64,000 bases of DNA, from NCBI RefSeq assembly GCF_003790525.1, contig NZ_CP033635.1; one strand, 5' to 3'. Origin of the DNA: Escherichia coli. GTDB lineage: Bacteria > Pseudomonadota > Gammaproteobacteria > Enterobacterales > Enterobacteriaceae. The notes below the pieces were generated by a model. The model was not told the origin of the DNA, searched no databases, and saw only the letters and a program-made list of their open reading frames with translations. The position numbers and the translations under genes were made by a program. How positions within the stretch are numbered: position 1 is the stretch's first letter; each line of letters opens with the position of its first letter. Positions 28,328 through 51,110 of the stretch are shown one piece after another.

Positions 28328-30442
28328 TCAATCAGCCACTAATAGCGGACTAGGGATACCAGATGATGAAACAAACAGCCCTTTTACGGCACGGGTTGCA
28401 GCCACATGCAGTAACGCGCGCTCATTAAATAATGCATCACGCTGTTCAACGGGATCATCGGATGCTAATGCTTTTATTTCCGGCACAACGCCTTCGTTAA
28501 TCCCCACCAGGAACACATACTGGAACTCAAGCCCTTTAATACGGTGCATCGTTGCAACTCGCACGCCTGGGCGTGCATCGCTGTCACCGCTATCATTGCC
28601 TAAATTAAATGTCTCAATTCCGGCGTCATTGAGTGCTGATGCGTAGCGGTCGCAAGCATGTTTAGTACGCGCAGTAATGCAGATATCCTGAGAACGAACC
28701 TGATTCGCCAGCAATGCCTGAATTTGCTTGACGAGTGTTGCAGCCTCTTCTTTGAAATCTGCCGCATGCGTAATCATGGGCTTTTCCCCGTGCAGTAATG
28801 ACAAATAATCATTACTGGTATCCGCTTCGCCATCGAGGTTATCAACCTTCACACCAGTTAACAGCCCAACAGCAAATTGACGCGTCTCTTCTGTGGTCCG
28901 ATAGTTAATCTTCAATTTTTTACTGCGACGACCACGGACGTTAATACCACACTGACCAAGAACGACCTTATTGCGATAAATACGCTGATGCCCATCCCCG
29001 ACAATAAACAGATCGTTGGGCGACTCGGGAACCAGGCTGCGAATAAGAGTAAATGCCGGGGCACCGATATCTTGAGCTTCATCGACGACAATACTGCTAT
29101 AAGGTAGTTGGACCTGCTTTTCTTTAAACAGAACAATAGCCTCATGCATGGCATCGCCCATTTCGCGCAGTTTGGCACGCGCCATTTGTGCTCTGAATTC
29201 TTCGAAAACTGGCCAGATTTTCGCCCGTTGAATACGGGATAACGCTGTACCACGTCCAACCCGGCTGACTTTGAGGTATTCCTCCCGGGTGTAAACCGCA
29301 TTTGGCTGGACAACGCGTTGCCACTCTTCAGCATAGAAATTGTCAGGTAGCCCCAGTTCGGCAGGTGCCTGCTGCAAGGCATAGTTCCAGCATTTACGTC
29401 GCCCTTCATCGCTGTCGTATACCACGCGGAAATCATAACCGTGGCGTTTTAGTTGGTCGCTCATCCAGGCATCAATGTTAACGACGTCAATACGCGCCAT
29501 CTCTTCTCGCGTACACAACCGCTGGAGATTAGCGCGAATATCTGCCGCCAGGTTACGCGTAAAGGTCGTGAAAAGTACCTTCTTACCGGGTTTATCTACC
29601 AGACGCTGAGATAACCACCGCGCACGGTGCATTGCAACAACCGTTTTCCCTGTACCTGCACCGCCCAGTACTCGTACCGGACCATTAGCGGGCGACTCCA
29701 CCAGTTTTCGCTGGCTCGGATGCAGAAATACACGCCATTTTTCTAAAGGCGCATTAAGCATCTGCAACAGCTCCTGTTCATTTTCAACGACATAGAAGCG
29801 ACGTTTACTTCGTTCAATCGCCTCCATAAAGTCGTTGGTATCAACAGGCTCATCACGATGATCGTTAAACTCTTCCAGCACTTCCTGGTAATCCAGCCCT
29901 TCTGCCAGCCAATGCAGGGGTTCCCAGGCTTCTGCTGGCATTATGCTTTCAAGTTGATTAAGCCCGGCTTCATCGGTAAGCGCCATCACCTGATCAATAA
30001 AGACAGGCGGCACACCCAGGGCCAGAATCTGTTCCGCGCTGTAAGCTGCGAAGAGTTTCGGTTTATCAACCACTGTTTCCGCTGCCGGTTTGATATAGCT
30101 AATATCAATAACCTGAATTGCGCCGGTAACCGGGTGAATTGAACAATCATGCCGCCGCGCCCAGTCGTATGCTTCGTCGTGTTTATCCACCCACATCAGC
30201 ATATACAGGGCACCCTGTTCAGGTTTCAGAACAATGCCGCGATAAGTTTGATCGATTCGCACCGAATGGACATTTTTACTGCGCGCATCGTGGATCTTTT
30301 CATAGTTAAGTCCATTACTGGTCGGGTCCTGACGGAATTTGGAGATGAATTCCTGCACCTTTTTTTGCTGTGCTTTTGGGATCCGCGCGAATGCGCCCAG
30401 AAAACCATCAGAAAGTGCCACCTTGGGCGTTTGCACCGTCAT
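28328..30442 (-). CDS. UvrD/Rep-like superfamily 1 DNA helicase (704 aa) with a roughly 230-aa N-terminal extension; last gene of the DISARM-like operon
   Basis: Walker A VLGGAGTGKT, Walker B VVDEAQD, motif VI-like VATMHRIKGLEFQYVFLVG; start overlaps the upstream stop (ATGA). Confidence 0.8.
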   Translation of the reverse strand: MTVQTPKVALSDGFLGAFARIPKAQQKKVQEFISKFRQDPTSNGLNYEKIHDARSKNVHSVRIDQTYRGIVLKPEQGALYMLMWVDKHDEAYDWARRHDCSIHPVTGAIQVIDISYIKPAAETVVDKPKLFAAYSAEQILALGVPPVFIDQVMALTDEAGLNQLESIMPAEAWEPLHWLAEGLDYQEVLEEFNDHRDEPVDTNDFMEAIERSKRRFYVVENEQELLQMLNAPLEKWRVFLHPSQRKLVESPANGPVRVLGGAGTGKTVVAMHRARWLSQRLVDKPGKKVLFTTFTRNLAADIRANLQRLCTREEMARIDVVNIDAWMSDQLKRHGYDFRVVYDSDEGRRKCWNYALQQAPAELGLPDNFYAEEWQRVVQPNAVYTREEYLKVSRVGRGTALSRIQRAKIWPVFEEFRAQMARAKLREMGDAMHEAIVLFKEKQVQLPYSSIVVDEAQDIGAPAFTLIRSLVPESPNDLFIVGDGHQRIYRNKVVLGQCGINVRGRRSKKLKINYRTTEETRQFAVGLLTGVKVDNLDGEADTSNDYLSLLHGEKPMITHAADFKEEAATLVKQIQALLANQVRSQDICITARTKHACDRYASALNDAGIETFNLGNDSGDSDARPGVRVATMHRIKGLEFQYVFLVGINEGVVPEIKALASDDPVEQRDALFNERALLHVAATRAVKGLFVSSSGIPSPLLVAD

Positions 30443-50700: not shown

Positions 50701-51110
50701 ATAAGATCTTCCAGAACCGGTACCATAAAGCATTCTGTTTTCCCGGATCCCGTACCGCTGCTCACTAACAAGGATTTTTTGTCTTCCAGAATCGTTCGCC
50801 ACGCCGTAAGTTGATGACGAAATGGCACCGGCGCTTTGCTCAATGCATCAACCAGCGGGCTGGAAATTAGCTTGTCCCGCAAATCCTCCATTGTTTCATC
50901 CGCAGGCATCCAGCCGAACGTGCTTTCGAATACCGGGTCTGCAAGCAGTGACCCCTCCTGACCGGGAGGCTGGAAATATTGTGATTCCAGATAATGAGTC
51001 AACGACTTGCTCCGCAATGCCAACTGACTTACCACCGACCTCACCGCGCGCTGATGAAGCTGATTTAGAAGTGGCGCATAATGCAGTTGCTGAACGTCCA
51101 TCAATGACAT
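44787..51110 (-). CDS. Giant DEAD/DEAH-box helicase with DUF1998-like zinc ribbon (2107 aa); DruE-like, paralogue of the 2113-aa protein
   Basis: Motif I LVSSGTGSGKTECFM, DEAH box VLDEAHSY, motif VI LQRAGRAGRRGE; Cys-rich module IYDNNAGGAGY...DCSCDKFCHHCLLSYDSQ...; 10-nt overlap with the upstream gene. Confidence 0.8.
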   Translation of the reverse strand: MSLMDVQQLHYAPLLNQLHQRAVRSVVSQLALRSKSLTHYLESQYFQPPGQEGSLLADPVFESTFGWMPADETMEDLRDKLISSPLVDALSKAPVPFRHQLTAWRTILEDKKSLLVSSGTGSGKTECFMVPVLEDLIRQQKSTRQSLTGTQAIFLYPLNALINSQQERLREWTRGFKGKIRFALYNGETRHTKYEVQEDQLKVPEQALSREAIYEAPPSIMVTNTTMLEYMLIRRKDAPIIEKSQGMLKYIVLDEAHSYIGSQAAELALLLRRVMQAFNVGPGTDKPVQIIATSATIGEDSPEGNKELAKFVADLAGVTERDVKVVRGYRQIPRVSESLIRHEYPTSLTSLKSLSPQDLYQQLCHYRVAQQLRQALTHPGRQAVRLSELLNVARRTWPDINHRELLQLLDLMARSREGELAFTPLRMHGFIRTLAGLWACSNKQCSHKAHELNQSDWPFGQVWFEQRQYCDCGAPVFEVLRCSGCGSAYLSAKEEVRGDGTNWLVAQPAAAEVDEFALDVDVYSEDEDNDELDNNSQFDRLIAIDGEKYIISLEETTAGKIDSEAQKHYEINLLRPESRGEGRNNSFACVCCGDTQRKNNPLFRPLRLGAPFFLNEIIPTLLEFSPLPQTREEQLGPFNGRRLLTFTDSRQGTARISARLQQDADKATLRALCYQELANINEPSAKLSPAHCALLESFITQFSILPLKNSIDALKKAMVANEELSPADIQALKIIEPMVSSLSPDHAEAMQILQANSGNQQKKTMSWQTLSEQLVGSVDLADRMRGSFKELSGLDLTKQQFADFCLYSEFGRRPKNAWTLESLGLVAIHYPFIDKVTTCPQDWKTLLPDPDKQLAEWRNLLKITLDFFIRENSAVFYENEQYPRWMGARFPVKMLQGPDKKNKGQKRDQLWPQIRDRHYNRVIKLLIAVFPAIQPEQAHWKSLVNHLMIEVWDAIRPCLRQFESGYQLDIKQQAEFYSPKQVWRCPYTRRALDVTLLGYSPYLPGSKEIAPEKAVLIEMPELPVRHWRLSGGGEIAREERLEWLESNALIQHAREEGLWSTRSDRLALKDSWYRLEEHSAQRTPEQNQFNEKQFKSGKVNVLNCSTTMEMGVDIGGMSLVAMNNVPPAPANYLQRAGRAGRRGESASAAITLCKNTAHGMEVFKDPLWAFNTTASAPRVRFGSSSIVQRHVNALVLGLFLRAEVPDATKLSCKWFFEGDESQCLRFLHWLNNQADQLADKLKRLTQGTVLMSLTATQLLTRTQAMMQQVDIRWRSQLAILLENIEALKADNSAWEETPAGKAIAYQLRDYRGAYLFSKLISEAFLPGHGFPVGVVNFNYLTADELEKRRAIKATQADPNEGGESFSRRIEKLPSRDLPTALREYAPGADVVLGGKVYRSSGIMLGKVLASGQELSGDHHIPWFWHCRKCGAGATSTTRPVECSHCKADIQQLDVKRYLQPVGFATDIRYQAHNDVSMPAQLPWKDPRVLVPSSVWVSLPDAGLGRYRFSHSGELFHFSEGEFGHGYAICLSCGRAESQNQPQRTPENLKNPERENTHYLLRGGSNDRQGSNKLCHGHVHKDLWLGYSSRTDMVELQLNDDNGLLIRDEVAARSLAVALREGLAHKLGIENTELGVTTQQARDINGYTGYSIFIYDNNAGGAGYAVQLIDHWADVFNYARKLLDCSCDKFCHHCLLSYDSQHYVNRLDRHHALTLLTNVRLQRLNLAPEYQYFGDGSRVETNPLSLRIAQCLNSEIYDSCSLVLAGPQEQWDFAQWPLFKELLQFASSGGHVELLVATPLANLTDSSRHQLSALAAMPGGRLQVKSIATAQLMQGKGRWLAQVTREGQSQQWAADDSATVAPGELWGQSASSPVVTLKGTSGKTFLGQILSAEDLLPALPTGAVRINLCEQLDGPLEGFGSRFWSLVTQQHAGWKQAFTRHKEITHVEYSDRYLNSPFTARLLGEILTELVEQGMAERASLTVCVKKLDYNSRQHDALYNAWLNEEDRQQVVTTLLEEGYLGPAWLGAISWLTGDNQSTEHGRELTVTFSDGSQHYVLLDMGLSYWRCIEDTFFDFALRVPQQVERLANTRARAVAPGNDLRSYIIAG

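Follow-up and report, generated by a model that had tools for sequence, protein, structure and literature searches.

The two giant open reading frames in the window (the 64,000-nucleotide stretch of Escherichia coli DNA analysed here) belong to two defence systems that have both been described before. The reading frames between positions 28328 and 54460 make up druH-druE, a Druantia type III system, and armABCD, an ARMADA type II system; the upstream giant is DruE and the downstream giant is ArmC. The window is a 100% match to E. coli SMS-3-5. Whether the two modules act independently or cross-talk, as the preliminary description asked, is no longer open, since published experiments have settled the matter phenotypically: each module is active alone, yet the two are synergistic against many phages. 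We hold the whole account given below with high confidence, that is, two modules built around ancient paralogues, synergy between them, and an inferred mechanism for ARMADA II.

The layout that the preliminary description had reported was reproduced. The two giant genes lie on the minus strand at 30439-36780 (armC, 2113 aa) and 44787-51110 (druE, 2107 aa), 8.0 kb apart, and the ORF list, PADLOC and RefSeq place them in separate operons, each with its own neighbours and partners. Motif I, GTGSGKTECFM, is identical in both proteins (ArmC residue 105, 36436-36468; DruE residue 119, 50724-50756). In each, the DEAD/Helicase_C core is split and is followed by an MrfA Zn-binding (DUF1998) domain; this zinc module sits about 75-80% along the protein, at 73-78% of the length of ArmC and 77-80% of that of DruE. 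Pfam scans, done on each giant in halves, located the DEAD domain of ArmC at 35947-36531 (residues 84-278), Helicase_C at 33583-33804 in ArmC (residues 993-1066) and at 47682-47897 in DruE (residues 1072-1143), and MZB/DUF1998 at 31867-32136 in ArmC (residues 1549-1638) and at 46029-46268 in DruE (residues 1615-1694), all on the minus strand. The claim of a common domain order thus stands up to the DUF1998 module, but not beyond it: the last ~450 aa are unrelated (E 3.8), and the effector C-termini differ, with a PLD type reported in the literature for DruE and a Vsr-like one in ArmC.

Pairwise BLASTP of ArmC against DruE gave 34% identity over 211 aa in RecA1 (E 4e-30) and 23% over 719 aa from RecA2 to DUF1998 (E 3e-26), with a global identity of ~23-27%; this similarity is well above chance and exceeds generic helicase motifs. 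Both proteins also match MrfA/YprA (PDB 6ZNP, chain 6znp_A; ArmC E 3.5e-20, DruE 1.4e-19), with which they share the DEAD/Helicase_C core and the MrfA Zn-binding domain. They differ from MrfA (~750 aa) in having C-terminal nuclease modules and, separating RecA1 from RecA2, an insertion of ~700 aa. The near-equal lengths, the identical 11-residue motif I, the common strand and the 8 kb spacing could be taken to mean that one gene is a recent copy of the other, or that the assembly is at fault. We rejected this reading, which retains practically no probability, on three grounds: blastn of armC against druE found nothing beyond matches of 40-50 nt; the proteins are only 23-34% identical where they can be aligned at all, and not similar across the C-terminal portion; and over 500 independent complete genomes show the same arrangement. 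Judged by sequence, ArmC and DruE are diverged, ancient paralogues in a YprA/MrfA-like family with DUF1998, and not the products of a recent duplication, in agreement with the clear divergence noted earlier.

The identity of the upstream module is firmly established. DruE, the YprA-like helicase-nuclease of Druantia type III, matches the PADLOC profile DruE3 (PDLC00037) with 2180 bits, residues 9-2105 aligning with profile positions 4-2051 of 2055. It is also a near-identical match to the solved structure 9TU7, which is DruE from EDL933 (9tu7_Y, 4862 bits over 2105 aa). RefSeq starts the gene at 51101, three codons downstream of the longest-ORF start. Immediately upstream and in the same orientation, with overlapping stop and start codons, lies its partner gene druH (51101..54460, minus strand, 1119 aa, STY4851/YjiT family; PADLOC, NCBIfam and RefSeq), whose product matches DruH3 (PDLC00041) with 2541 bits over profile positions 1-1117 of 1117 and the NCBIfam YjiT_fam model with 980 bits against a cutoff of 150. 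With a DruE close to 9TU7, a DruH matching DruH3 from end to end, and druH-druE divergent from zorABE, nothing substantial differs from the Druantia type III of E. coli EDL933 and ATCC 8739 (structures 9TU7-9TUD). Pfam on DruE residues 1001-2107 returned no PLD domain match; tandem C-terminal PLD-like nuclease domains are attributed in the literature to the near-identical solved DruE. Preprints from 2026 describe DruE as a DNA helicase that is dimeric, works in the 3'-to-5' direction, bears PLD nuclease domains at its C-terminus and loads where ssDNA meets duplex in intermediates of phage replication or recombination. They describe DruH as a sensor or licensing partner that binds ssDNA or acts as an exonuclease, and the defence as direct and non-abortive. 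The same preprints conflict on the preferred overhang (5' vs 3') and on whether DruH is an exonuclease or an ATP-regulated ssDNA binder.

Several lines of evidence support the assignment of the downstream module to ARMADA II. First, armA, armB, armC and armD lie on the minus strand, each abutting or overlapping the next, and follow the gene order by which ARMADA II is defined, i.e. a BrxHII/SNF2-like helicase, a PglX-like methyltransferase, a YprA-like helicase and a GajB-like helicase, and every testable feature of the system was found. Secondly, the eight residues of ARMADA II tested by mutation (ArmA K136/D236, ArmB G605/N971, ArmC K110/D234, ArmD K266/D454; Bell et al. 2025, PMC12458937) occur here at the same positions, each within the motif expected for it (GxGK[T], [D]E, NPPW). 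The Vsr-like fold of ArmC and the RelE fold of ArmD, described below, add to this. Bell and co-workers demonstrated that defence needs all four arm genes as well as their ATPase and methyltransferase motifs, and that ARMADA II cloned alone on pBeloBAC11 protects in a direct, non-abortive manner. Phage resistance has been shown for the near-identical ARMADA II of NCTC 12900, ATCC 8739 and EDL933, which shares gene order, protein families, catalytic residue positions and neighbours (Druantia III, Zorya II) with the module described here but carries another armB allele than SMS-3-5.

ArmA (41705..44563, 952 aa; PADLOC, NCBIfam and motifs) is a SNF2/BrxHII/DrmD-like helicase with K136 and D236 in Walker A and B contexts. 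It scored 333 bits against DrmD and 201 bits against BrxHII in PADLOC, and its accession, WP_001041505.1, is also annotated in an O157:H7 genome. ArmB (36780..41702, 1640 aa; PADLOC and motifs) is a PglX/type IIG/DrmMI-like adenine methyltransferase (REase_MTase_IIG 934 bits, DrmMI 190 bits) with G605 and N971 in place, the latter in the NPPW motif at 38781-38792. Directly after this motif, comparison with the O157:H7 allele delimited a variable cassette at approximately residues 990-1450 (~460 aa, ~37353-38735, minus strand), where identity falls to 30-64% from ~100% in the flanks; the allele of this window occurs in only 17 of 525 genomes. Variability of armB has been noted in general terms by Li et al. 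(2025, bioRxiv 10.1101/2025.09.22.677730). ArmD (28328..30442, 704 aa), whose gene shares its first 4 nt with the end of armC, combines an N-terminal domain of RelE fold (about 30104-30442) with a UvrD/GajB-like helicase (28364-29722). Residues E48, R62, R68 and H88 of its RelE-like part are invariant.

In ArmC, the YprA-like helicase-nuclease, the C-terminus contains a Vsr-like PD-(D/E)xK fold (core at about 31366-31683) with invariant acidic and His residues, and is predicted to be a Vsr-type nuclease with a conserved active site. A ZorE-like domain terminates the protein (30460-30735). The families proposed for comparison in the preliminary description, DruE and DrmA/DrmB, proved to be the right ones: DruE matches DruE3 over its full length, whereas ArmC matches DruE profiles piecewise, in 2-3 separate stretches (best 348 bits), and DrmA weakly (49 bits in PADLOC). 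ArmC is not itself the DruE of a Druantia system, lacking an end-to-end profile match (348 bits as compared with 2180 for DruE), nor is it a Druantia member by its partners, which are ArmA, ArmB and ArmD instead of DruH or DruA-D.

The resemblance to DISARM class 1 (DrmD, DrmMI, DrmA, DrmB, DrmC) deserves separate consideration, since armABCD likewise encodes a helicase of the SNF2 type, an N6-adenine methyltransferase and a helicase of the YprA family that carries DUF1998. The module could accordingly be a variant of DISARM class 1, or just a restriction-modification enzyme of type IIG to which helicases have been added as accessories. The PADLOC scores of ArmA, ArmB and ArmC against DrmD, DrmMI, type IIG and DrmA profiles point in this direction, as does the label given by DefenseFinder, which is DISARM-I-related. 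The architecture argues otherwise. Helicase and DUF1998 are fused in the one 2113-aa reading frame of ArmC rather than divided between separate drmA and drmB genes; a Vsr-like domain, also fused in ArmC, takes the place of the PLD nuclease DrmC, and PADLOC and domain scans found no PLD gene or domain within 28328-44563; and armD, the RelE-UvrD gene, is additional. Moreover, ArmA reached 349.7 bits against the NCBIfam model DISARM_DrmD (NF038317), below its cutoff of 610, ArmC is nearer to DruE than to DrmA profiles, and the published phylogeny puts the ARMADA helicases beside Druantia, in a Druantia-side clade. We therefore regard a DISARM or type IIG identity as very improbable, and retain the assignment to ARMADA II.

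Between the two operons lies a 223-bp spacer (44564..44786, minus strand) in which a consensus scan found a terminator-like hairpin at 44741-44755, with a T-run after it, as well as a match to a sigma-70-like promoter at 44655-44682. The scan gave five terminator-like sites against 0.8 expected and four promoter-like sites against 1.1 expected. The spacer sites suggest, short of proof, that druHE and armABCD are separate transcription units. It could be hypothesized that the modules are mere neighbours in a defence island, fully independent of each other and co-occurring only by hitch-hiking on one mobile element. In favor of such independence, besides the spacer sites, ARMADA II on pBeloBAC11 and druHE alone in MG1655 (as published) each work when cloned, and the GC content varies along the island, from 0.375-0.40 in Zorya and DruH to 0.49-0.53 in ARMADA, which suggests a mosaic origin. 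Synteny surveys of the kind that the preliminary description proposed have been published and show near-obligate co-occurrence of the modules. Our own counts support co-inheritance: of 5426 complete E. coli genomes, 525 have armC, 540 have druE and 527 have the junction of druE with armA. On the side of independence, the E. coli island copies are 95-100% identical (as is armC at the nucleotide level) and represent one island lineage, so that these counts are not independent events.

Experimental results have nevertheless largely refuted full independence, which we consider unlikely. The single and double knockouts that the preliminary description proposed had already been made elsewhere: deletions in ATCC 8739 and EDL933 revealed synergy (Bell 2025, PMC12458937; Li 2025, bioRxiv 10.1101/2025.09.22.677730), with positive epistasis for 16 of 21 phages in ATCC 8739 and with 22 phages in EDL933. 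Two laboratories have thus observed more than additive protection in native hosts. In addition, the array is carried by various types of mobile element at various tRNA sites, its druE/armA junction was also found on 17 plasmids, and Li et al. (2025, bioRxiv 10.1101/2025.09.22.677730), who counted it in 426 of 3792 genomes and named SMS-3-5 as a carrier, reported it in further genera. DruE and ArmC offer a clean case of paralogous helicase-nucleases that diversified into separate, synergising immune systems. In EHEC EDL933, Zorya II, together with Druantia III and ARMADA II, has been reported to give most of the strain's phage resistance, and the island is thereby relevant to phage therapy against O157:H7.

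By analogy, ARMADA II may follow a DISARM/BREX-like scheme. ArmB would mark host DNA at an allele-specific motif, with the recognition cassette being swapped between strains, while ArmA and ArmC would translocate on and unwind unmarked invading DNA. The conserved Vsr-like PD-(D/E)xK domain of ArmC would cut that DNA, and ArmD might contribute a UvrD motor and a RelE-like domain that is possibly RNA-directed. The position of the variable cassette, directly behind NPPW, would fit sequence-specific methylation by ArmB. Our reading of ArmB is complicated by the finding that loss of its NPPW motif abolishes defence and causes no self-toxicity (Bell et al. 2025, PMC12458937); since defence is lost, ArmB is not the simple protective methylase of a classical restriction-modification system. 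A scheme of this kind should also be weighed against Li et al. (2025, bioRxiv 10.1101/2025.09.22.677730), who favour structure-dependent and not sequence-dependent target recognition. The synergy would most likely arise when DNA intermediates produced by one system become substrates for the other. Sequence handles for work on ARMADA II and on the synergy are provided by the invariant Vsr-like residues in ArmC, those of RelE type in ArmD, the ArmB cassette and the tail shared by ZorE and ArmC.

Zorya type II, which completes the tripartite island known from the literature, is encoded on the plus strand by zorA2-zorB2-zorE (54615..58145; PADLOC ZorA2 1001 bits, ZorB2 346 bits, ZorE2 585 bits; RefSeq annotation), divergent from druH. 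ZorE carries a C-terminal extension that shares homology with the terminal domain of ArmC. When 40 diverse ArmC tails were combined into a profile, it matched ZorE residues 277-354 (51 bits), and ZorE compared directly with the ArmC tail showed 40% identity. A 2026 study could assign no family to this extension and linked it to Druantia association. The PADLOC ZorE2 match in ArmC (2021-2096) does not indicate an HNH nuclease, as it aligns with the non-HNH ZorE residues 279-354, the HNH lying at ~221-253; nor is the tail a duplicate of the Vsr-like core of ArmC, to which hhalign detected no similarity (probability 0.2).

It is conceivable, if rather doubtful, that the shared tail is a docking or DNA-structure-recognition domain that wires Zorya II to ARMADA II, instead of or besides Druantia III, in one coupled three-system network. 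A stable complex of ZorE with Druantia was not detected in published work. The tail survey was an exhaustive representative search; word-indexed searches returned 13 short fragments for a 100-aa tail profile and five matches for the 473-aa C-terminus. ZorE proteins with the tail were found on a P. putida plasmid of 19 kb and on megaplasmids of Vibrio, and neither ARMADA nor Druantia genes lay within +/-10 kb of them. These stand-alone Zorya II loci weaken a tie between the ZorE tail and a co-located ARMADA II; the domain thus does not depend on ARMADA.

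The two giant helicases of the locus, which the preliminary description had presented as related proteins, are encoded on the minus strand at 30439-36780 (ArmC, 2113 aa) and 44787-51110 (DruE, 2107 aa); the ORF list contains further large minus-strand ORFs, two between the giants, one upstream and one downstream. The motif GTGSGKTECFM lies at residue 105 in ArmC and at residue 119 in DruE. With each protein scanned in halves against Pfam, ArmC displayed a DEAD domain (residues 84-278), Helicase_C (993-1066) and MZB (1549-1638), and DruE displayed Helicase_C (1072-1143) and MZB (1615-1694), MZB being the MrfA Zn-binding domain earlier named DUF1998. 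BLASTP aligned the RecA1 lobes at 34% identity over 211 aa (E 4e-30), and the stretch from RecA2 to the Zn module at 23% identity over 719 aa (E 3e-26). Global alignment gave ∼23-27% identity, highest at both RecA lobes, and the last ∼450 residues of the two proteins displayed no similarity (E 3.8). ORFs, Pfam and BLASTP thus bear out the relationship, with similarity well above chance. These protein identities exclude a pair unrelated outside the helicase motifs, and a near-identical pair is excluded at the DNA level, where matches between armC and druE are limited to patches of 40-50 nt. The interpretation initially given was also correct. The giants belong to a pair of already described systems: DruHE and ArmABCD are known and experimentally characterised, the strain is named in the literature, and the single and double knockouts that had been proposed are exactly the experiment already published. 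The residual value of our results lies in concrete residues and cassettes for mechanistic follow-up.

By its sequence the upstream pair, druH (51101-54460, minus strand) and druE, is unambiguously Druantia type III. DruH matched PADLOC end to end at 2541 bits and the NCBIfam family YjiT_fam at 980 bits (cutoff 150), and DruE matched PADLOC end to end at 2180 bits and PDB 9tu7_Y at 4862 bits, the 9tu7 entry being the cryo-EM structure of EDL933 DruE. The Druantia III preprints show DruE as a dimer with 3'-to-5' helicase activity and PLD nuclease domains, which engages junctions that contain ssDNA. DruH is described there as licensing DruE and as binding or processing the ends of ssDNA, with disagreement among the preprints on overhang polarity and on DruH activity. 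DruE is also the protein previously tied to motility in the literature, and one RefSeq record, that of O157:H7 Sakai (RIMD 0509939), names a gene under the druE/armA junction “motility-regulating DEAH-box RNA helicase”. Himpich et al. 2026 reported that swimming and the fliC transcript were unaffected by druE deletion, and that the protein bound DNA but not RNA; this annotation seems outdated.

The second module, also on the minus strand, consists of armA (41705-44563; SNF2/DrmD/BrxHII-like helicase, 952 aa), armB (36780-41702; PglX/type IIG/DrmMI-like methyltransferase, 1640 aa), armC, the second giant helicase, and armD (28328-30442; UvrD/GajB-like helicase, 704 aa). Its genes abut or overlap (TAATCATG, TGATG and ATGA) in a pattern typical of translational coupling, and a 223-bp spacer, in which a consensus scan found a terminator-like hairpin and a promoter-like match, sets them apart from druE. 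Bell et al. 2025 (PMC12458937) named this four-gene module ARMADA type II (ArmABCD), and reported that, cloned alone, it protected against 13 of 80 phages, that all four genes were essential, that defence was lost in Walker and NPPW mutants, and that protection was direct and not abortive. The residues mutated by these authors occur in the window proteins at identical positions and in the expected motifs (8/8), and Li et al. 2025 explicitly named SMS-3-5 as a carrier. We considered DISARM class 1 for the same genes and rejected it: that system has split DrmA/DrmB and the PLD nuclease DrmC, neither of which was found in armABCD, as well as DrmD, for which ArmA scores under the family cutoff. 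Nor is ArmC a DruE, since DruE profile matches reach at most 348 bits and are piecewise.

For ARMADA II, genetic requirements and the non-abortive phenotype have been shown so far (Bell et al. 2025, PMC12458937). Mechanistically, ArmB, whose cassette following NPPW is swapped between strains, would methylate an allele-specific motif; ArmA and ArmC would translocate on and unwind unmarked DNA, which the Vsr-like domain of ArmC could then cleave. The synergy of Druantia III with ARMADA II has been shown as a phenotype and, by analogy with Druantia-Zorya work, might operate through shared DNA intermediates. The armB cassette comprises ∼460 aa directly after NPPW (residues ∼990-1450; window ∼37353-38735, minus strand) and shares 30-64% identity with the O157:H7 allele, against ∼100% for the flanks. 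Compared in this way, it looks like a target-recognition domain swapped between strains. Of 525 E. coli genomes, no more than 17 had the window's allele at ≥80% of the gene; Li et al. 2025 noted armB variability in general terms.

Sequence methods were without success for the ArmC C-terminus. An exhaustive representative search (E≤1e-3) returned 933 representatives, mostly ∼2100-aa proteins in which the match spans ∼1640 to the end, and 40 of these were aligned; the predicted structure reached a pLDDT of 86.8. PADLOC reported a “ZorE2” match at ArmC 2021-2096, which is not an HNH domain, as the matched part is the C-terminal extension of ZorE. The shared domain covers ArmC ∼2016-2107 (30460-30735, minus strand) and residues 277-354 (57870-58103, plus strand) of the ZorE encoded by the Zorya II system of the same island. 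Compared directly, the two are 40% identical across 57 aa (E 2e-8), and a profile built from the 40 ArmC-family tails alone matched ZorE 277-354 at 51 bits. The extension is present in 90% of Druantia-associated ZorE proteins according to Wu et al. 2026, who linked it to association with Druantia, could not place it in a nuclease family and did not mention ArmC. The homology to the ArmC terminal domain is offered here as a family assignment and as no more than a weak lead. Since ZorE proteins with this tail are also encoded by Zorya II loci that stand alone, on Vibrio megaplasmids and on a P. putida plasmid of 19 kb, the domain does not depend on ARMADA II.

Of 5426 complete E. coli genomes, 525 carried armC, 540 carried druE (518 with ≥80% coverage) and 527 carried the 1-kb druE/armA junction, so that the modules are practically always adjacent; the counts agree with the 426 of 3792 genomes of Li et al. 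2025. Since all copies are 95-100% identical, these counts reflect one island lineage and not many independent associations. Plasmids carried the junction as well: 17 had it at 97.8-98.7% identity (15 from Escherichia and 2 from Klebsiella pneumoniae; 7 predicted conjugative), e.g. NZ_CP026578.2, NZ_MN256757.1 and NZ_CP031815.1, and consequently the paired systems also move on plasmids. Four of the junction-bearing E. coli plasmids carried zorE as well.

E. coli SMS-3-5 (NC_010498.1) matches the window at 100% identity over armC, armB and the druE/armA junction, and RefSeq annotation places the locus between a truncated nanS, beside fim/nan genes, and further defence genes. At ∼25183-26190 and 26208-27814, bordering the ARMADA end of the island, lie nanS (sialate O-acetylesterase), truncated per annotation, then a frameshifted ORF and a hypothetical protein of 216 aa (27164-27814) that had no match to defence families. 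This region is probably the island boundary. GC content climbs steadily through 28328-58145, from Zorya II (0.375-0.384) over druH (0.40) and druE (0.487) to ARMADA II (0.49-0.53); within druE it rises from ∼0.43 at the 5' end to ∼0.515 at the 3' end, and druH and druE are 9 points apart though they share one operon. Beyond Zorya the defence stretch (58972-63996) encodes an HNH/type IV-like endonuclease (58972-59613, minus), a phosphorothioated-DNA-binding HNH restriction endonuclease (59693-60622, plus), a candidate PDC-S11 protein (60734-61732, minus; PADLOC, 375 bits) and JetD of type III Wadjet (61859-62914, minus; 807 bits), with the remaining Wadjet genes extending past the window end. 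In SMS-3-5 the stretch continues with CbtA/YeeU, antirestriction “moron” genes and a degraded integrase.
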